Of a stretch of 64,000 bases of DNA, positions 5,824 to 45,359 are shown in pieces. Below the pieces are notes generated by a model, which saw only the letters and a program-made list of their open reading frames with translations, was not told the DNA's origin and searched no databases. Made by a program: the position numbers and the translations under genes. The DNA comes from an uncultured Brachyspira sp. (GTDB lineage: Bacteria > Spirochaetota > JAAYUW01), in the NCBI GenBank assembly GCA_964581895.1, contig CAZOPR010000002.1:254185-318184 (forward strand). The letters are read 5' to 3'. Numbering within the stretch: the stretch's first letter is position 1; each line of letters begins with the position of its first letter.

Positions 5824-6135
5824 ATGGAAAAAGTAATTAAAATTATTAAAGATGAAATCGAAAAATGTGATTTAAAAGTTTTAAAAATAATATTATTTGG
5901 TTCAAGATCTAGAGGTGATTTCAGAGATGATAGCGATTGGGACTTCCTTATTATAATAAATAAGAATTTAGATAGATCCAAAAAATGGGATTTGATAATA
6001 AAAATAAAAAGAAGATTATCTTCTTTAAAAATTCCTAATGATATTATAATAAACTCCTTTGAAGAGTTTGAAGAGAGAAAAGATAATGTAGGTTATATTA
6101 CATATTATGCATTTAGAGAAGGCATATCTTTATGA
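5824..6135 (+). CDS. Minimal nucleotidyltransferase (MNT-type, antitoxin-like)
   Basis: Pol-beta superfamily NTase motif ILFGSRSRGDFRDDSDWDFLII (GS...DxD); 103 aa; stop overlaps next start (ATGA). Confidence 0.75.
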   Translation: MEKVIKIIKDEIEKCDLKVLKIILFGSRSRGDFRDDSDWDFLIIINKNLDRSKKWDLIIKIKRRLSSLKIPNDIIINSFEEFEERKDNVGYITYYAFREGISL

Positions 6136-6539
6136 ATGAACAAAGAGTTGAGCAGTGGATTATTCTTGCTGAAGGAGACTTAAAAACAGCAGAAGATGAA
6201 CTATCTATGTCAGAACCATTTACTAATTCAATTTGTTTTCATGCTCAGCAATTAGTTGAAAAATACTTGAAAGCATATCTAACCTTTTATGGAAAACCTT
6301 TTAGAAAAACTCATGACCTTACAGAGTTAATCAATGAATGCATTGAATTTAATAAAGACTTTCAGAACTTATTTGAATTAGATGTTGATAAATTAACACA
6401 ATATTCTATAGATTCGAGATACCCTGATGATTTTTATATTCCATCATTAGATGAAGCAAAAGAAGCTATAAATTTAGCTAAAGAAGCTAAGACTTTCATC
6501 ATTAAAAAATTTGAGGATAATGGATATAGAAAAAATTAA
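6132..6539 (+). CDS. HEPN domain protein (toxin-like partner of MNT)
   Basis: 135-aa helical protein directly coupled to MNT gene; R-x-x-H (FRKTHDL) and SRYPDD segments typical of HEPN partners. Confidence 0.65.
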   Translation: MNEQRVEQWIILAEGDLKTAEDELSMSEPFTNSICFHAQQLVEKYLKAYLTFYGKPFRKTHDLTELINECIEFNKDFQNLFELDVDKLTQYSIDSRYPDDFYIPSLDEAKEAINLAKEAKTFIIKKFEDNGYRKN

Positions 6540-11178: not shown

Positions 11179-12570
11179 TTAAACTGAATCTTCTTGATTT
11201 GATTCAATTAATTTTTTTATAAGGTTTGGCTCATCTATTGCAAGGATTTCTTTTTCTTTTGAGTAAGTAACTTTTCCTAAAATTTTAGGAATTGGTTTAA
11301 CATATTTACATCTTGTATAGATTACTGAAGCTTTGCCGGCATTTTTCCCTTTAGAAAAGTGTATTGCAAATGTTGAGGCGATTTTTATATCATCATTTGT
11401 CAAATTTTCATCCAATAAAATGATAAAAGGTCCTTGATAATCTCTAACATGAAACCACCAGAAATTTCCCTTCCCAAATTTTTTTAATATCTCATTATTC
11501 CCGATTGATGATTTTCCAAAAACAAGTTTTTTACCATTTTCTAAAGTAATAATATTATACAAAGAACTTTTTTCTTTTTTTATTTGTTGATTTAATTTTC
11601 CTTCTTTTATTTCATCTTCTTTAGATAAAATCTTGTATGGGTTAATTTCATTATTTTCTACTTTTTTCTTATTTTCATTTAGTATCTCAATCTTTTTATT
11701 AAGTTCTTCAATCTGGCTCTTAAAGTTATTTATGAATTGCGTAAGTTGTTCTTTTTTCCTTAATTGTTTTTTGTAAAGTTCATAAAAATACTGCGCATTT
11801 TCCACTGCAGTTTTATTTTCAATATATTTTATCTTTAGTTTTTCTTTTATCTTGTTTATATCATTTAAGTTTTGTAAGATAAGATCAGCTGTTTCTTTAT
11901 AAGAAAAAGGATTTACATTTTCTAATTCTTCAACTAAACTTTCAAGATATTGATTTTTTTTAATCAATTCATTTCTTATTAAAGTTATTTCACTTTCAAT
12001 CTTTTCTATACTTATTTTTTTTAAATAAAAATTGGTGATTTTTTCTGTAAAAGTGATTTGTGGATTTAAGTTAAATTCTTCTCTTATTGAGAACTCTTTT
12101 TGAGTTTTGCTTCCAAGCCCAATATATTTATTTCCTTCTTTTTCAATTCTTTTTTCTCCAGATCTATTATGAAGTACAGAAAGTATATTGTTTTCATTAT
12201 TTATTAAAAAAATATTTCCATTTTTACCAAGAAGTTCTGCAATTATTTTGAAATTATCAAAAACAAAATATAAAATTCTATCATTTTTTTCAGAATAAAA
12301 ATCCTTTACAGTAAGACCATCTAAATATTTTCTTGCAACCATTGTGAAATGATATGGATTTTTAGGTGCCTTATGCCAAAAATTTCCAGTTCCTAAAAAT
12401 GTATTTTTAGGGTCAATAAAAATTATGATAGATAAGTCTTTATTTTGTTTTCTAAACTCAATCGTTAAAGCATTTTTTGAATATTGGGTTATCTTTTTAC
12501 AATTAGAGCCAATTATGAAATCTTTAAGTTCTGATACTATCTTTTCGAGTTCTGCATAATTTATTGACAT
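11179..12570 (-). CDS. NFACT-family protein (FbpA/RqcH-like)
   Basis: NFACT-N-like N-terminus, long coiled-coil middle, C-terminal NFACT-R/DUF814-like segment (GNFWWFHVRDYQGPFIIL). Confidence 0.5.
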   Translation of the reverse strand: MSINYAELEKIVSELKDFIIGSNCKKITQYSKNALTIEFRKQNKDLSIIIFIDPKNTFLGTGNFWHKAPKNPYHFTMVARKYLDGLTVKDFYSEKNDRILYFVFDNFKIIAELLGKNGNIFLINNENNILSVLHNRSGEKRIEKEGNKYIGLGSKTQKEFSIREEFNLNPQITFTEKITNFYLKKISIEKIESEITLIRNELIKKNQYLESLVEELENVNPFSYKETADLILQNLNDINKIKEKLKIKYIENKTAVENAQYFYELYKKQLRKKEQLTQFINNFKSQIEELNKKIEILNENKKKVENNEINPYKILSKEDEIKEGKLNQQIKKEKSSLYNIITLENGKKLVFGKSSIGNNEILKKFGKGNFWWFHVRDYQGPFIILLDENLTNDDIKIASTFAIHFSKGKNAGKASVIYTRCKYVKPIPKILGKVTYSKEKEILAIDEPNLIKKLIESNQEDSV

Positions 12571-12579
12571 AATGTTTTT

Positions 12580-13326
12580 CTAATTCTGGATTATTATTGG
12601 AGATACTGTGCTTTCTATCGATTTTATCTTATTGATAAGTGCAATTGCATCTTTTTTATCAGTAAATTTTCCACTTCTAATCCTATAATAATATTTACCA
12701 TCTATTTCAGTTATGACAATATAACATGGAATACCTGCTTTTTCAAGTTTGTTTTTAAGAGATATTGCTTTATCAAAATCTGTAAATGAGGCTATCTGAA
12801 TTACATAAGTAATACTTGATGTTTTACTATTTGCAGTCTTGCTACTGCTACTTTTAATTGTCTGAGAAGTTGCATTTGCCTTTTCTGATTCAGTTTTGAT
12901 TTCATTTTTTGTATTGGAAGAACTGACATTACTATTTTGAGAAGATGTGCCGCTTGAAGATAGAGCTGTTATTGAAGGATTTGTCAATATTTGGAATGAA
13001 CTATTCTCGCTATTCTGGCTATTTTGAATTGTATTATCTGATTCAGTACTATCTATTTGAGTGTTATCTATATTTTGCTGGTTTTCAGTACTTAAAACTA
13101 AATTTTGATTATCTTGTTCTTGACTTTGAAATTGAGATTTCTTATCGGTTTCATTTGAAAAGTTTATCTTATTATTTTGAAAATATGAAATAACTATATA
13201 AGCGCTAATTGCAACAGATAAAAGTAAAATAAATACTATCGCAATAATTTTTAGTGTTTGCAGGCTATTATCAGAATTGTTTCTTTTCATTCTTTCATTA
13301 TTTTCAAAATTTTCATTTTTATCCAT
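12580..13326 (-). CDS. SPOR-domain protein with N-terminal TM and S/T/N/Q-rich linker
   Basis: C-terminal SPOR-like segment YVIQIASFTDFDKAISLKNKLEKAGIPCYI...YYRIRSGKF. Confidence 0.6.
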   Translation of the reverse strand: MDKNENFENNERMKRNNSDNSLQTLKIIAIVFILLLSVAISAYIVISYFQNNKINFSNETDKKSQFQSQEQDNQNLVLSTENQQNIDNTQIDSTESDNTIQNSQNSENSSFQILTNPSITALSSSGTSSQNSNVSSSNTKNEIKTESEKANATSQTIKSSSSKTANSKTSSITYVIQIASFTDFDKAISLKNKLEKAGIPCYIVITEIDGKYYYRIRSGKFTDKKDAIALINKIKSIESTVSPIIIQN

Positions 13327-39439: not shown

Positions 39440-40264
39440 ATGGAAAAAATAAAATTTGCATTTTTGTTTTTCATTTTAGTTTTACCTTTATCTTTATTCT
39501 TTAATTTTGGGGCAAAAAATTTTTCAGATAATTTAATTTATGAAAGAAAAGTATATTTTTCAATCCAGTCATTTCAAAATGATAAGGCTTTTGAAAGGTA
39601 TTTAGGATTTTTGAAAAACAACAAGATAAGTGGAATAACATTTTATGGACTTCATAAAAAACTTGAGGTTAGTCCATCGGTAATTTTCGCAAAATTGAAA
39701 AATGAGATACCAGAAATTCAGATATTTATAGCAGGAGACAACTTTGATTTTTTCAATACTTTAAATGAAGATAAGAACTTGATGCAATATGTAGATGGAT
39801 TTCATATTGAGTATGAATACTGGAATTATTACAAATATAAGAAAAAAGATAGAAACGATGCTTTCAATTATTTTATAGAAGAATCAAAAAAAATTAAAAT
39901 TCTTACCAATGAAAATAAGAAAAAATTTGAAGCATATTTTGGATGGTTTAACGATGAAGAAGCAAAAAGTTTTTTACCTTTTTTTGATTCTATTTTACTT
40001 CATTCATACACGAATCAGATACAAAAAACAGGGCAATATATATTTGAAAGATTGTTGACTTTAAGTAAAATAGACTCCCAAATCCCCTGGTTTATACTAT
40101 GCTCAGCAGAAAAAGATTTTATGGAACAAACCTTAAAAGAGTACGGCCTATTTAATTTAGAAAAATTGATTCTTGAAAATATAAAACCAAGCTTTGATTA
40201 TTTAAAAAATTTTAAAGGATTTTACTGGTTTACTGGTGAGCTAGTCGAAAAAGCAATAAGATAG
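39440..40264 (+). CDS. Hypothetical secreted protein
   Basis: Signal peptide; no recognised domain. Confidence 0.3.
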   Translation: MEKIKFAFLFFILVLPLSLFFNFGAKNFSDNLIYERKVYFSIQSFQNDKAFERYLGFLKNNKISGITFYGLHKKLEVSPSVIFAKLKNEIPEIQIFIAGDNFDFFNTLNEDKNLMQYVDGFHIEYEYWNYYKYKKKDRNDAFNYFIEESKKIKILTNENKKKFEAYFGWFNDEEAKSFLPFFDSILLHSYTNQIQKTGQYIFERLLTLSKIDSQIPWFILCSAEKDFMEQTLKEYGLFNLEKLILENIKPSFDYLKNFKGFYWFTGELVEKAIR

Positions 40265-40333
40265 AATTATCTCCTGAAAAAGGAACTCATATTTCAAAGG
40301 TTTATATACAGTCGAAAAAACAATAAGATAGAA

Positions 40334-43075
40334 TTATCTTGTCTTAAATCCTTTCCTTTTCATCATTCCCCAGGAGCTTTTGCCTATAAGGTTATTGAAA
40401 TATGCTACTAATCTAAGAATATTCATTAACTGTCGATATCCGAAATTTTCAACAAGTCCAATAAGTATTAAAATTATATCTTCATACCAGGCAAAATATA
40501 TTACATTTTTTTCAGAAATTGCTAACGATAGGATAGATAAAACAATCCCAAGCAAGATGCTTGTCAAAAAAAGAAATAAAAATAAAGGTAAGGTAAAAAT
40601 CCCTAAAAATATTGCTAAGATAGAAAAGAAAAGTCCCATAACCTCATAAAAAGGTCCAAGAGTTTCAAAGATAAGATAATAAGGAAGGGCTACTACGCCA
40701 ACTCTGCCATAATTTTTATTAAAAATCATCTTTCTATGATATAAAAGGATTTCAATAAGTCCTCTTTGCCACCTATCTCTTTGTTTTTTAAGTATCTTAA
40801 AAGATTCTGGAACTTCAGTCCAGCAAGTGGCATTTATCGAATAGTTAACTGCTTTTTCCTCTTTATTTTCCAACGCATATCTTCTTAGTCTAACTATAAG
40901 TTCCATATCCTCGCCAACAGTATTTTGTCTGGCAGAAGTTCGAAATGTCATATATCCACCGATTTTTTGAACTGCTTTTCTTTCAAATACTCCAAAAGCA
41001 CCAGAAATAATGAGTAAAGATTTTATAAAAGCCCAGCCAAGTCTTCCAGTAAAATATGCCCTTAGGTATTCCATTGTTTGAAATTTTGCAAGTAGATTCT
41101 TGCCTATCCCTATTTTGATCAGTGAACCATTTTCAACTTCACAGCCATTTACTGGCATTATTTTTCCACCAGTTGCAATAATTTTTTCATCACTTTCTAT
41201 GATTGGTGAAATGGCATATAAAAGTGCATCCTGTTCTAAAAGACTATCCGCATCTATGCCACATATATACTCACCATTTGCTAAATTTATACCAGCATTT
41301 AATGAATCTGCTTTTCCACCATTCAATTTGTCAATGACAAAAAGATTTGAATGTAACCTGCTTTTATACACACCAATTATTGACGCTGTGCTTATATGTT
41401 GAGGCATAATTTTAAATGGAATTCTTTCAAGTTCAAAATTTTCTTTTAACACATTCAAAGTATTATCTGGTGATCCATCATTTACAACAATTACTTCGAA
41501 ACTCGGGTATTTAAGTGCAAGCAGGCTTCGAACATTTTGCACAATAGTTGCTTCTTCTCTAAAAGCAGGGACTATAACTGAAATTGAAGGTAAAACCCCT
41601 TTTTGGAAATAATTTAAGTATGAAATAGAATATTTTAGTTTATTTTGTCTTGATATTTCAAGATTTGCAAAAAATAAAAAAAGAATAGATATTGAATTTA
41701 ATGTTAAAGCATAGTATCCAAAAAACTTTATGTAAAAAACTATAAAAGATTTTAACCAGGGTAAAAATGGGAACAAACTTTCTTTTTTAATTAAACAAAA
41801 TATCAAAATTGGTGCTAAAAATAATGCTGCTGCAAGAGCAATAAGGAAAGGTCTATCCTTTTTAGAAGCTTCTGGTGCTTTTTGAGCTTCAACTTTTTTC
41901 TTTGGTGGGAAATTGTGTCTTTGGCATATTTCATCGTTAAGTGAAAAGGTAAATTCTTCAAATATTTTAATCCTTTTTTCATAATCAGGTTTCTTAAAAT
42001 TAACAATATCAAGAACCTGAACAATTTTTAATATTAAGATCTCCTCTATCTTTTTATCTTCATTACTATTTAAGTATGAGACTATGTTGTAGATTAACCC
42101 ATTTTTGATACAATACTCTAATAAATCATTTACCTTTTCATTCAAAAACCAATCTTTTATATCTAAAAAATAATATAGATAACTTTCAAGGATAAAAGCT
42201 AATTTATCTTTAATAGAAGTTTCACCTGTCTTAAAAAAAATTTCTATCAATTTATCCTTAAATTCATCGTTATTTTTAGTTGCATTTTCTAAAGCAGCCA
42301 AAGCATATTGTTCATTTTCTGGTTCACCCAAAAATTGCAAAATTCTATGGAAATTATCAACATTTTGAACCCTACCAAGAGCTTTAATGGCAAATTCTCT
42401 TATTTCATTATTTTTATGCCTTAAAAAAAATTGTGAATTAAGCATTGATGGAACAATATGATAGATAACACTTGCAGCCTCGGAAGAAAGATCCTTATCT
42501 TCTGACATTAATGATTCAACAAGTATTTTTTCAAGTGATGAAGATGGGAAATATATACATAGTCTAATCCCTATAATTGTTTCAGCCTTATTGTATGGAT
42601 ATCTTGAGGAAATAATATTGGCTGTAATATCAGGATATTCCTGTAAGATTGCAATATATTGAGTAAATCTACTTATGTTCCCACTTTCATACTCTTTAGC
42701 TGCACTATCCAGGATTAAAGGTATCAAATCGTAACTTTGAGAAAAAAGAAGGGATTCACAGATCTTAAATCTTATCGAACTGGACTTTTCAACTACTAAA
42801 AAACCAGAAAGAATCTGTACACCTTCAAAACCATAAAATCTCAAAGAAAATGCAGCATTTGCTCTTTTGATTTTGCTTTTTGACTTTATCTGATGGACAA
42901 GCTTCTTAAAAAGTCTCGATTTTTTTTGAGTGTAAAATTCTATATTTTTTAATTCTATAGGTAAAACTATTCTTTCACTGCATATATTTAAGGCTGTAAT
43001 TAAAAGAGATTCTGGGAATTTATTGAAGATATTTTTTTCTTTTTTTCTTAAAACTCTGTATATTTGTTTCGTCAA
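40334..43075 (-). CDS. Family-2 processive glycosyltransferase with N-terminal HEAT-like repeat region (polysaccharide synthase-like)
   Basis: GT2 motifs VIVPAFREE, VVNDGSPDNT, GIDADS, QRDRWQRG (QxxRW); TM segments flank the catalytic domain; TTG first codon immediately follows an in-frame TAA. Confidence 0.7.
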   Translation of the reverse strand: MTKQIYRVLRKKEKNIFNKFPESLLITALNICSERIVLPIELKNIEFYTQKKSRLFKKLVHQIKSKSKIKRANAAFSLRFYGFEGVQILSGFLVVEKSSSIRFKICESLLFSQSYDLIPLILDSAAKEYESGNISRFTQYIAILQEYPDITANIISSRYPYNKAETIIGIRLCIYFPSSSLEKILVESLMSEDKDLSSEAASVIYHIVPSMLNSQFFLRHKNNEIREFAIKALGRVQNVDNFHRILQFLGEPENEQYALAALENATKNNDEFKDKLIEIFFKTGETSIKDKLAFILESYLYYFLDIKDWFLNEKVNDLLEYCIKNGLIYNIVSYLNSNEDKKIEEILILKIVQVLDIVNFKKPDYEKRIKIFEEFTFSLNDEICQRHNFPPKKKVEAQKAPEASKKDRPFLIALAAALFLAPILIFCLIKKESLFPFLPWLKSFIVFYIKFFGYYALTLNSISILFLFFANLEISRQNKLKYSISYLNYFQKGVLPSISVIVPAFREEATIVQNVRSLLALKYPSFEVIVVNDGSPDNTLNVLKENFELERIPFKIMPQHISTASIIGVYKSRLHSNLFVIDKLNGGKADSLNAGINLANGEYICGIDADSLLEQDALLYAISPIIESDEKIIATGGKIMPVNGCEVENGSLIKIGIGKNLLAKFQTMEYLRAYFTGRLGWAFIKSLLIISGAFGVFERKAVQKIGGYMTFRTSARQNTVGEDMELIVRLRRYALENKEEKAVNYSINATCWTEVPESFKILKKQRDRWQRGLIEILLYHRKMIFNKNYGRVGVVALPYYLIFETLGPFYEVMGLFFSILAIFLGIFTLPLFLFLFLTSILLGIVLSILSLAISEKNVIYFAWYEDIILILIGLVENFGYRQLMNILRLVAYFNNLIGKSSWGMMKRKGFKTR

Positions 43076-43280
43076 TTATTATAATTTCATCTTCTTTTGG
43101 CTCTTTATTTACATATTCATATGCAATATTAGCTATTTTTTTTACAAGAATATTGATTGTTTTAGTTTTTCTCTTTTCTTTATATTTAATATAGAAAAGG
43201 GATAAAATAGATAAAATAATGAGAAAGCTAATAAAATATATTGAAATAAATAATATATTTAGCGAATTAAATATTTTCAT
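43020..43280 (-). CDS. Small membrane ORF, possibly the true N-terminus of the GT2 synthase separated by a frame break in an A7-G-A7 tract
   Basis: N-terminal TM helix; 56-nt overlap with GT2 ORF in +1 frame across 43032-43046. Confidence 0.35.
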   Translation of the reverse strand: MKIFNSLNILFISIYFISFLIILSILSLFYIKYKEKRKTKTINILVKKIANIAYEYVNKEPKEDEIIIIDETNIQSFKKKRKKYLQ

Positions 43281-43287
43281 ATTTTTC

Positions 43288-44235
43288 TTAAATACTTGAA
43301 CTTATAAAAATTCTTATAATTGAGAGAAGTTCATTTATAAAATATGGCTTTTTTATGAAATAATTTATCCCTAATAAAGATGCTGTTTTAAGTAGATCAT
43401 CATTTTTTTGGGTGCTTAATATTATCAAAGGGATATTTATATCCTCTTCTAAAAGTTTTTGTCTTAAATCAAAGCCTCCATATCCAGGGGCTGCAAGTTC
43501 GGAAATAATGCATATTGGATGAGAACTTTTTAATTTTTCGTAGGCAAGTTTACCATCTCTAAACCAGACACAATTTATCTTGTTTTGTCTTAAAATATCT
43601 ATAACTATAGCTGCATTAAAAGGATCTGGTTCGACAAGGAAAATTTCAGGAGTTTCATAAATTTCTGAAGCATTTGCCAATATTACCTTCGAGTTTGTAT
43701 CAGGTTTTTGTTCTGAAAACAAGTTATTAAATTTACTTAAAAAATGTTCCCTAATCGACTTCCCTTCTTCAATATTTAATAGACAATTTTGAACTGAAAA
43801 AATATAAATATTTGATTCTAAAAAAGAAGATAAAATAGATTGATTTAATTCATAAATAAAAAGATTAGATTTTGCCTTTATTTCAGATATAGAGTCTGCA
43901 AATGAAAATAATATAATACCACTATTATAAAAAAAAATTGGAGAAAAAGGGATTAGTGTATTAAAAATTATTGTATTAAGCTCATTTTTTATTTCATTAA
44001 CATTAATTTTATGATCTGTTTTGTTTACTAAAAAGATATACAAAAGATATACATCTATTTCATATTCATCAATCAGTCGAATAAGATGCTCTAAAAAATT
44101 GAAATTATCTAAAAAAGTAAGAAATTTATTTTTATCATTTACTAAAAATTTTTTATCAAGTTCATATTTTATGATATTTTCTTTCAATCTTTGATTTTCT
44201 TTTTCAAGTTGAAAAATATTTTTTTGTTTTCTCAT
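43288..44235 (-). CDS. Receiver-like domain protein with Glu at the phospho-acceptor position and N-terminal coiled coil
   Basis: C-terminal REC-like layout IFLVEPDP ... ICIISELAAPGYGGFDL ... PLIILST ... FIKKP. Confidence 0.5.
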   Translation of the reverse strand: MRKQKNIFQLEKENQRLKENIIKYELDKKFLVNDKNKFLTFLDNFNFLEHLIRLIDEYEIDVYLLYIFLVNKTDHKINVNEIKNELNTIIFNTLIPFSPIFFYNSGIILFSFADSISEIKAKSNLFIYELNQSILSSFLESNIYIFSVQNCLLNIEEGKSIREHFLSKFNNLFSEQKPDTNSKVILANASEIYETPEIFLVEPDPFNAAIVIDILRQNKINCVWFRDGKLAYEKLKSSHPICIISELAAPGYGGFDLRQKLLEEDINIPLIILSTQKNDDLLKTASLLGINYFIKKPYFINELLSIIRIFISSSI

Positions 44236-44375
44236 AATTACGACATTTTCTAAGATTTTCGGTTTTTATATTAATCTTTTAATTTTATCGCTACTTAATA
44301 TTGGTAGCTCATGAAACTTTAAGTAAAATATAAAAAATATAAATTTTAATGTAAGATATATTTTAATCTTTTTAG

Positions 44376-45098
44376 CTATAATTTTACAACTAAGGCAAAA
44401 CCAATATCCAAAAATCCAGCTTTATTGAAAAAATAAGGTTGAAAATAAGCGCCAACTGAAAAAATCGGGAAATTGAATTTAATACCAATTAAACAGGACA
44501 AATTAAAAAGGCTTTGCTCTATAGCAAAACTTACCCCTAAATCCATTCCAAAAATCTGAAAGAAAGCAAGATAAGATTTCATCCATAGTGCATAGGAGAT
44601 ACCTTTACCAGTTTCGTAACCGATAGCAGAATTTACAAAAAAGTTATAACCATTTGGGAAATTATAAATCGAGTAAATATAGCTAATAGAAGAGAAAAAA
44701 TCAGGGCTAAATTTCAGTATTTGTCTGAAGGCGAGATACCATTCATTTTTCTCAAAGTTGACACTTAATAAAATTTCATGCCTATCTATTTTATCTGTAA
44801 AATAAAAACCATACATAAAGTCGATATACCAACTTTTAGGGAAGATAAATGTCCCACCAAGCATTATTTTATAACCAGTATCACTTTCATAATAATATGA
44901 ATAACCAAAAAGAGCAGATAAAGCAAAAAAATTCGAGATTGGAAAAGATAAAGATTGATTTAATCTTCATTGAGAAAGGTTAGAATCATCTAAGCTCATA
45001 TCAAATTCAGTTGAAATCCAGATTTTTGGGGAAGCAAAAAGTGGAAGACTAAAAAAACATAGTACGATAAATAATATAAATAATTTTCTATTTTTCAT
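44376..45098 (-). pseudogene. Outer-membrane beta-barrel-like gene interrupted by in-frame TGA (minus-strand codon at 44967-44969)
   Basis: Signal peptide ORF MKNRKLFILFIVLCFFSLPLFASP... is in the same frame as the 162-aa ORF starting at 44864; single TGA between them. Confidence 0.45.
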
Positions 45099-45223
45099 AG
45101 CAAGAATATAATAAAAATAAGCTTATTTGTCAACTTTAGAAGTTTAAAAACTTTATTAATTCTTCATTAAAGTTTTTAACAGTAAAAGTCAAAATTTATC
45201 TTATTTGTTTCATTTATAGATTT

Positions 45224-45260
45224 AATAAAAAACCAAGCCTGTCAAGATAACAGGCTTGGT
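45224..45260 (-). terminator. Rho-independent terminator downstream of tRNA-Pro
   Basis: 9-10 bp stem ccaagcctg / caggcttgg with 9-nt loop, followed on the minus strand by T6. Confidence 0.55.
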
Positions 45261-45286
45261 AAAAGGAGGTAAATTATGAAAAAAAG

Positions 45287-45359
45287 TCGGAAAGAGGAGA
45301 TTTGAACTCCTGACCCCATGGTCCCGAACCATGTGCGCTACCATCTGCGCTACTTTCCG
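45287..45359 (-). tRNA. tRNA-Pro (anticodon CGG)
   Basis: 73-nt cloverleaf: acceptor CGGAAAG/CTTTCCG, D-arm GCGC-AGATGGTA-GCGC, anticodon arm CATGG-TTCGGGA-CCATG, T-arm AGGAG-TTCAAAT-CTCCT; CCA not encoded. Confidence 0.85.

Follow-up and report, generated by a model that had tools for sequence, protein, structure and literature searches.

The window considered here, i.e. the whole stretch of 64,000 nucleotides (64 kb) that was analysed, contains on its minus strand a reading frame that begins like the gene of a secreted protein and is then cut by an in-frame TGA. This raises the question whether the TGA marks a broken gene, separates two genes, encodes an amino acid, acts as a leaky stop, or is an error of sequencing or assembly.

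From the ATG at 45098, 43 codons (MKNRKLFILFIVLCFFSLPLFASPKIWISTEFDMSLDDSNLSQ) lead into the TGA at 44967-44969. Beyond it, the frame is open for another 196 codons, to the TAG at 44376-44378. Only the last 162 codons, from an ATG at 44864, are listed by the ORF tool. The preliminary description had drawn attention to the signal peptide behind ATG 45098 (MKNRKLFILFIVLCFFSLPLFASP...), to the 43 codons that run into the TGA, and to the stop-free continuation into the 162-aa ORF. Rereading of the minus strand agrees with it on all of this. The features of the gene are as follows:

45232-45359, minus strand: upstream boundary of the unit, consisting of tRNA-Pro(CGG) (45286-45359) and an intrinsic terminator (45232-45260)
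45105-45133, minus strand: sigma-70-type promoter TTGACA-17-TATATT, with 11 of 12 matches, ending 6 nt before the ATG
44376-45098, minus strand: the whole interrupted gene, for a predicted 240-codon outer-membrane beta-barrel protein with signal peptide and 14 strands (from full-length orthologues, an AF2 model and fold matches)
45030-45098, minus strand: signal peptide, about codons 1-23 (MKNRKLFILFIVLCFFSLPLFAS), read from the sequence, with a putative cleavage site
44967-44969, minus strand: premature TGA, codon 44, in beta-strand 2 of the model; TGG (Trp) in every orthologue
44637-44639, minus strand: codon 154, TTT (Phe), derived by C>T at 44638; Ser in all other family members
44376-44864, minus strand: leftover 162-codon ORF from Met79, a gene-caller artefact that starts in the middle of strand 4, without signal peptide or Shine-Dalgarno motif
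44376-44378, minus strand: stop codon TAG of the interrupted gene, from reading the frame

One interrupted gene and its predicted product

The 43-codon and 162-aa pieces, which appear in public annotation as separate calls of 43 aa and 162 aa, are halves of one broken 240-aa gene. The fused 240-aa product has 10 relatives among 5.8 billion proteins. Seven of the ten are full-length (240-257 aa) and match it end to end, with 63-98% identity and E-values from 3e-148 to 2.5e-93; the fusion is therefore more than a chance juxtaposition. The sole name found among the relatives is "hypothetical protein, Exilispira sp.". The type strain of E. thermophila has 24% GC, compared with 26.9% in the window, so that the organism probably belongs to another species. 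When 1.84 billion representatives were searched exhaustively with a profile, eight family matches resulted, which makes the family tiny, and three of the eight are distant relatives from high-GC organisms.

A Trp is found at the interrupted position in all seven full-length relatives, within the motif LSQWRL. The six other members of the cluster at 90% or more are without exception intact at 240 aa, and retain W44 and S154. At the DNA level, codon 44 stands in the context caa tgg aga in every intact lineage (tgg caa in L015), and in the context caa tga aga in the window. The conspecific metagenomic contigs L004 and L012, with 98.8% and 99.0% nucleotide identity to the window, also have TGG. 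The preliminary description had suggested a comparison with orthologues, and its outcome is TGG (Trp) at codon 44 in every one of them. The signal peptide is likewise present in all full-length orthologues, and Met79 is invariant in the family alignment, as is S154 apart from the allele of the window and of scaffold L021 (see below).

An AlphaFold2 (AF2) model with a seven-sequence alignment as input (mean pLDDT 76.1, pTM 0.65) has an N-terminal helix (residues 2-17), followed by 14 beta-strands. In the model, strand 2 (residues 40-53) contains W44, and strand 4 (residues 74-85) contains Met79. Judged by eye, the N-terminus has the basic n-region, the hydrophobic h-region and the site (...LFAS/P) of a signal peptide. 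A Foldseek comparison of the model with the PDB gave 143 matches at E<=0.001, and all those listed are porins or other outer-membrane beta-barrels. The top superposition is with the PgaA barrel 4y25 (query-normalised TM-score 0.67); the 14-stranded OmpG structures superpose with TMq 0.60-0.66 and rmsd 4.3-5.9. At the sequence level, the protein stays below threshold for Pfam OMP_b-brl PF13505 (20.1 bits, E = 7.6e-4; gathering score 28.7), and searches of NCBIfam models and of PDB chain sequences returned no match. The Exilispira-type members of the family end in ...ALVVKL, with Leu and not Phe as the last residue, and the distant homologues P0011 and P0012 end in ...RF. With the 14-strand model and the porin-like fold matches, the earlier guess of a beta-barrel holds up: the intact form of the gene product is predicted to be an outer-membrane beta-barrel that belongs to an unnamed family of its own.

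The model also bears on the possibility that the two pieces are genuine genes in their own right, one for a small secreted peptide and the other for an independent 162-aa protein. Three lineages have a 162-aa protein among their gene calls (P0008, P0009, P0020), Met79 is conserved throughout, and contig L002 keeps 162 intact codons behind an N-terminal part that is unrecognisable. However, a protein starting at Met79 would begin halfway through strand 4 of the 14-strand barrel, and would be without the signal peptide and 3.5 strands. Met79 is not preceded by a Shine-Dalgarno motif in any lineage, a normal N-terminus occurs elsewhere in the L002 lineage (P0013), and all other lineages encode a single protein. 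The independent 162-aa gene is thus rejected, and the two-gene reading has next to no probability. The preliminary description had allowed for a separate downstream gene with its own signal peptide; the orthologues and the model instead show one gene.

The mRNA should be leaderless, or nearly so, because the promoter ends 6 nt before the ATG. In each of the nine lineages (9/9), the TTGAC(A/T) box keeps a fixed distance to the ATG, and the leaderless or near-leaderless layout therefore appears to be conserved. This layout of the barrel gene promoter is a by-product of the analysis, as is the definition of a tiny, unannotated family of predicted 14-strand outer-membrane barrels.

Coding status, authenticity and age of the stop codon

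TGA is an ordinary stop in this organism, as the preliminary description had maintained. In the 64-kb window, it terminates 12 of the 52 stop-to-stop ORFs of at least 150 codons. A scan of the same window for TGA sites that join two stretches of at least 40 codons yielded 13 sites. Among them, the site in the barrel gene alone lies in a real coding frame, and the others are antisense to genuine genes.

A recoded TGA, read as Trp under a table-4-like code or as selenocysteine, would agree with the location exactly at a conserved Trp codon, and with a very AT-rich genome (26.9% GC in the window). It is hard to reconcile with the use of TGA as terminator of long ORFs and with the lack of a second in-frame coding TGA in 64 kb. 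Conspecific strains have TGG at the site, and homologues have Trp rather than Cys or Sec. The stretch of 86 nt that surrounds and follows the TGA has a folding energy of -6.6 kcal/mol, no better than that of shuffles (z = -0.33), no SECIS-like element was detected at the TGA, and Rfam matches only the tRNA, i.e. the tRNA-Pro that is the only tRNA in the window. Neither a tRNA-Trp gene nor prfB lies in the window. The preliminary description had proposed a check for a SECIS-like element and had not expected one, correctly as it turns out. Both the table-4 code and selenocysteine were discarded, and the probability of recoding is practically negligible.

A single transition at 44967, G>A when read on the coding strand, separates the TGA of codon 44 from TGG. 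When changes were polarised by comparing the window with L004 and L012, using L013 as outgroup, three derived changes in the barrel gene turned out to be specific to the window: the W44stop mutation, S154F in an invariant column, and a change from TAA to TAG at the stop codon. The number of synonymous changes was zero. Relaxed constraint would thus show in a single non-synonymous change besides the stop.

It has to be considered that the true base at 44967 might be G, and the gene intact. The case for a sequencing or assembly error is that a single base separates the window from contigs with about 99% identity. The best evidence to the contrary comes from L021, a 13.4-kb scaffold from JGI metagenome 3300045276 that has an N-gap and chimeric high-GC ends. 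It differs from the window by two SNPs over 11.5 kb, both located elsewhere, and shares the codon-44 TGA, S154F and an 8-nt deletion in the neighbouring GT2 gene. Since a separately assembled scaffold carries the same three changes, a random base-call error is unlikely, although the scaffold and the genome of the window could go back to a common data source. Moreover, the exact 162-aa product is present on contigs of three distinct sizes. The TGA is accompanied not only by S154F, but also by a lesion in the neighbour that is an 8-nt deletion and not a +/-1 homopolymer error, and the rest of the neighbourhood is without broken genes. An error at 44967 is accordingly improbable. With regard to sampling, the window genome and L021 might come from related samples, so that the independence of L021 is not proven.

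The age of the lesion can be judged from the conserved columns of the alignment. There, the number of deviations found in one sequence only is 1 for the window, 5 for L001 (a contig with an interrupted gene copy of its own, see below), and also 5 for the intact L018. Long-term decay of the interrupted copies was rejected on these counts, and the lesions in the window and in L001 both look young.

The putative polysaccharide module and its second lesion

Downstream of the barrel gene lie three further genes of the same module:

43288-44235, minus strand: intact 315-aa protein, second gene of the module; receiver domain at the C-terminus, GGDEF-homologous domain at the N-terminus
40334-43280, minus strand: HEAT-repeat and GT2 (PgaC/IcaA-like) polysaccharide synthase, split
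43032-43047, minus strand: tract of two (GAAAAAAA) units in the synthase; three units, in frame, in L013 and L009
39440-40264, plus strand: convergent 274-aa secreted protein of unrecognised fold, conserved as the fourth module member (E = 3e-36 against its positional counterpart in L017)

In the 315-aa protein, the receiver (PF00072, 1.9e-14) is the only Pfam domain found. The protein aligns end to end with the GGDEF+REC protein of the distant high-GC locus L017 (E = 2e-38), and its length is 315 aa in close relatives and 313 aa in L003. The synthase starts with a TM helix, continues with HEAT repeats, and ends with the GT2 domain, which scores above the gathering thresholds for PF00535 (7e-22), PF13641 (9.6e-22) and PF13632 (8.2e-12). 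Its top NCBIfam model is PgaC_IcaA (TIGR03937, E = 1.9e-35), with 122.6 bits against a cut-off of 422.3. For the 274-aa secreted protein, searches of Pfam, NCBIfam and the PDB gave no convincing match.

The order of the module (barrel, GGDEF-like/receiver protein, HEAT-GT2 synthase, convergent secreted protein) is kept in L003, L013, L019 and L017. As a further by-product, the analysis thus describes a four-gene module whose conservation extends from Exilispira-like spirochaetes with 27% GC to a lineage of high GC. By analogy, the module would be a synthase-dependent exopolysaccharide system that synthesises and exports a polymer, and the barrel would serve as the outer-membrane conduit.

In relatives, the synthase is encoded by a single ORF (979-985 aa in L003, L013 and L019; 968 aa in L017). 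The window has it in two pieces, of 86 aa (43020-43280) and 913 aa (40334-43075, with homology from 43048), which lie in different frames. One 8-nt (GAAAAAAA) unit has been lost, and the synthase is therefore frameshifted after about codon 80. The lesion is an event of the slipped-strand type, and not a +/-1 homopolymer miscall. The preliminary description had counted it as the second lesion in the same polysaccharide locus, and this is borne out by the 86 + 913 aa split. The remaining neighbour genes have lengths equal or nearly equal to those of their relatives, and none of them is broken. The A-rich tract in the GT2 gene could permit some transcriptional or translational slippage. A GT2 break was also seen in L007; it comes from a duplication of about 100 nt that L008, identical in all other respects, does not have, and an assembly artefact is its probable cause.

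A tandem repeat of this kind is the classic substrate of slipped-strand mispairing, and the module might accordingly be phase-variable, with reversible ON/OFF switching by slippage of the octanucleotide repeat in the synthase, and with the barrel stop as a secondary event in an OFF lineage. In this case, one would expect what is seen in the GT2 gene, where a perfect tandem repeat of 8 nt has lost precisely one unit, the frame being kept with three units and broken with two. However, there are only two copy-number states, and they differ only between lineages that are 87-92% identical. Three units are also short for high-frequency switching, and the repeat is absent from the other lineages, which have only an imperfect Lys-rich tract at the site of the (GAAAAAAA) units. 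L021 was the only conspecific sequence found to cover the repeat tract, and it has two units like the window. A homologue search with the reconstructed synthase N-terminus for conspecific 5' ends gave one 73% match only. The barrel gene has no repeat at its TGA, which is a point mutation and hence not a switch. Altogether, phase variation of the module appears unlikely. Of the alternatives "decay or ON/OFF switching of the whole module" in the preliminary description, decay is favoured by the two lesions and S154F, and switching is conceivable for the GT2 repeat only.

Leaky stop or recent loss of the module

There is one observation that does not fit easily with a simple nonsense mutation. 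L001, a Logan contig from a lineage with about 72% identity and with a different upstream context, has an in-frame TGA at the adjacent codon, R45 (aaa tgg tga ctt), where relatives have Arg (AGA). No stop interrupts the 162 codons downstream, which at conserved columns deviate no more than the intact L018 does. Two random nonsense substitutions would fall within one codon of each other with P = 0.018-0.028, a post hoc statistic that involves a single L001 contig. The coincidence is unexplained by plain random decay. A third TGA at W44 seemed to be present in L002 (tct aat tga taa). This claim was dropped: nhmmer homology goes back no further than about codon 58, and the lineage of L002 has an unbroken YQWRIEES in P0013. 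The L002 copy is therefore either truncated at its 5' end or a chimera.

The TGAs at W44 and R45 could be explained by a leaky-stop hypomorph under selection, which arose twice, and in which UGA tunes down an export porin through readthrough by the near-cognate tRNA-Trp. The adjacent codons are affected in two independent lineages (W44 in the window and L021, R45 in L001), and the L001 frame downstream is as well preserved as described above. At W44, readthrough by tRNA-Trp would yield exactly the wild-type protein. Ordinary translational control through a 5' UTR is not open to a leaderless mRNA. Bacterial tRNA-Trp(CCA) can decode UGA, weakly when its structure is normal and efficiently when the anticodon stem has 4 bp, and in E. 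coli the endogenous tRNA-Trp(CCA) gives background UGA readthrough, which variant tRNAs increase (PMC13092985). The same work finds suppressor tRNAs in 0.3% of standard-code genomes, and makes no mention of spirochaetes in connection with a UGA-reading tRNA-Trp (PMC13092985).

Against a selected leaky stop, there is no stimulatory structure, as the hairpin z-score of -0.33 and the lack of an Rfam match at the site indicate. All other conspecific sequences (6/6) have TGG, and fine-tuning of the porin would be pointless in a haplotype that has a frameshifted synthase. The adjacency statistic is post hoc, with L001 represented by a single Logan contig, and the apparent third case has no TGA at the site, but a 5' truncation. 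The selected leaky-stop reading draws its entire weight from the adjacent-codon coincidence in L001. We therefore regard such a hypomorph as quite unlikely, and consider it very improbable that W44/R45 is a recurrent, selected leaky-UGA site for heritable low expression of an export porin on a leaderless mRNA. If the L001 adjacency were more than coincidence, bacteria would offer here a natural case of attenuation by a leaky stop.

The data are probably best explained by a recent, strain-specific nonsense mutation in the barrel gene, which, with the synthase frameshifted as well, would mark the early loss of a conserved four-gene exopolysaccharide module. Codon 44 would have changed from TGG to TGA by a G>A transition. 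Translation would still start at the 5'-proximal AUG of the leaderless or near-leaderless mRNA, and would end after the signal peptide and about 20 mature residues, so that no barrel would be made. In the same haplotype, slipped-strand loss of one unit of (GAAAAAAA)3 would have frameshifted the synthase. With the synthase frameshifted and the barrel stopped, the whole pathway is most likely off and in early decay. Loss of barrel function in this strain and polysaccharide export as the function are inferred, as would be any order of the two lesions. Among stop codons, UGA is the most prone to leak, and the near-cognate tRNA-Trp would put the wild-type Trp back; the allele may accordingly be strongly hypomorphic and not strictly null. 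Through such basal misreading of UGA, traces of the wild-type protein could still be made, with no sign of programming.

The preliminary description had left the choice between a nonsense mutation, a sequencing error and regulated readthrough. The first is supported by TGG in all orthologues and conspecifics, and the other two have lost ground, because of L021 and because no SECIS-like element, significant structure or change of code was found, respectively. In biological terms, this is an ordinary event: conspecific strains retain a surface-polysaccharide system that the present one has probably lost.

In its predicted strand number and size, the barrel resembles the 14-stranded monomeric porins of the OmpG type. 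However, sequence identity to OmpG is only 8-9%, and the context of OmpG is sugar uptake, whereas the context of the barrel gene is polysaccharide synthesis. The module resembles the poly-beta-1,6-N-acetylglucosamine (PNAG) system (PgaA/PgaC) and other systems for synthase-dependent exopolysaccharides (Bcs, Alg, Pel). As in these systems, there is a membrane-embedded processive GT2 synthase. PNAG and other synthase-dependent systems also have an outer-membrane beta-barrel encoded in the same unit, and a partner related to c-di-GMP signalling domains, of which the GGDEF+REC protein of L017 is a possible counterpart. There are differences as well. The synthase is far below the PgaC equivalog cut-off. 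PgaA has a TPR periplasmic domain, whereas the barrel stands alone, with 240 aa, 14 predicted strands and no TPR, and it is the synthase that carries an N-terminal TM helix and HEAT repeats in place of a barrel-borne TPR scaffold. Unlike in Pga, neither a deacetylase nor PgaD was recognised in the module, and the fourth gene is without a known family.

Simple-sequence-repeat contingency loci are phase-variable surface and capsule genes. The GT2 gene is similar to them in that an intragenic tandem repeat sets the frame in a surface-polysaccharide gene. In contrast to contingency loci, there are only 2-3 units, and the repeat is missing from most lineages of the family. A close parallel to the barrel gene is provided by ordinary nonsense pseudogenes and by natural UGA nonsense alleles that show basal misreading by tRNA-Trp. 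The sole unusual point in comparison with these is the adjacent-codon TGA of L001. In other respects, with a single TGG>TGA change at a conserved Trp, in one strain of a species that is otherwise intact, and with a second lesion in the same pathway, nothing essential differs.

Interrupted and possibly truncated barrel genes

L001 5896-5901 (Logan contig SRR20820566_335001): in-frame TGA in the barrel gene
L002 1-640 (JGI 3300010023, Ga0130028_101353): partial barrel gene
Window 44511-44530, minus strand: terminator-like hairpin with a T-rich tail, within the barrel coding sequence

The TGA in the outer-membrane beta-barrel gene of the window has a neighbour in L001, an independent lineage with about 72% amino acid identity. 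The L001 codon adjoins the position of the window's TGA (K-W-stop-L versus W-R-L in relatives), and the 162-codon remainder on its 3' side is intact. The probability of such adjacency by chance is about 0.02. L002, a 1.2-kb contig, keeps 162 intact codons of the barrel gene; homology to the gene ends near codon 58 and the sequence upstream is full of stops. Either the gene copy in L002 has lost its 5' part or the contig is chimeric; a normal barrel N-terminus is present in P0013, from the same lineage. The hairpin in the window's barrel gene consists of 8 pairs, 3 of them G-C, and may be a chance match.

Promoter of the barrel gene

Window 45105-45133: promoter of the barrel gene
L021 1-15, about 9700 and 11481-13015 (JGI 3300045276, Ga0495054_004389): anomalous segments

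The 50 nt upstream of the barrel gene were compared in the window and in L001, L004, L005, L011, L013, L015, L018 and L019. A -35 box, TTGAC(A/T), is found at constant spacing to the ATG in all nine lineages, and each of the nine also has a -10-like box 6-8 nt upstream of the ATG. This fixed layout suggests that the barrel mRNA has no leader or almost none, and that this is a conserved feature. The window carries a specific T>C change (45104) in the stretch that separates the -10 box from the start codon; the change is present in the metagenome scaffold L021 and absent from the conspecific contigs L004 and L012 and the outgroup L013. The public L021 scaffold has one N-gap and switches abruptly at its ends to high-GC sequence, which includes an N6 methyltransferase gene; the gap and the abrupt ends suggest that the assembly contains chimeric joins.

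The four-gene module and its GT2 synthase

Window 39440-45133 and L017 432-5961: four-gene module
Window 43032-43047, minus strand: tandem (GAAAAAAA)x2 repeat of the GT2 synthase gene

The module, which comprises the barrel protein, a GGDEF-like and receiver protein, a TM, HEAT and GT2 synthase and a convergent secreted protein, is kept both in 27%-GC Exilispira-like genomes and in a high-GC lineage (L017). The GGDEF-like domain of the window's receiver protein is no longer picked up by Pfam, and searches of Pfam and PDB gave no match for the secreted protein (274-293 aa). In the synthase gene, the (GAAAAAAA) unit is present in three copies in the relatives L013 and L009 versus two in the window. 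Because one 8-nt unit has been lost, the window's gene is frameshifted and split into 86 aa and 913 aa, and the tract could be a slippage-prone site. The locus L007 (GCA_964386645.1, CAYLSG010000120.1) equals L008 except for a duplication of about 100 nt (L007 5054-5155) that breaks the GT2 frame; this duplication probably arose in the assembly of the MAG.

A small ORF pair elsewhere in the window

Window 5824-6539, plus strand: two small neighbouring ORFs, 103 aa and 135 aa

These ORFs occupy an otherwise 'empty' gap. Judged by eye, they look like a nucleotidyltransferase/HEPN-type pair, and are possibly a toxin-antitoxin pair.
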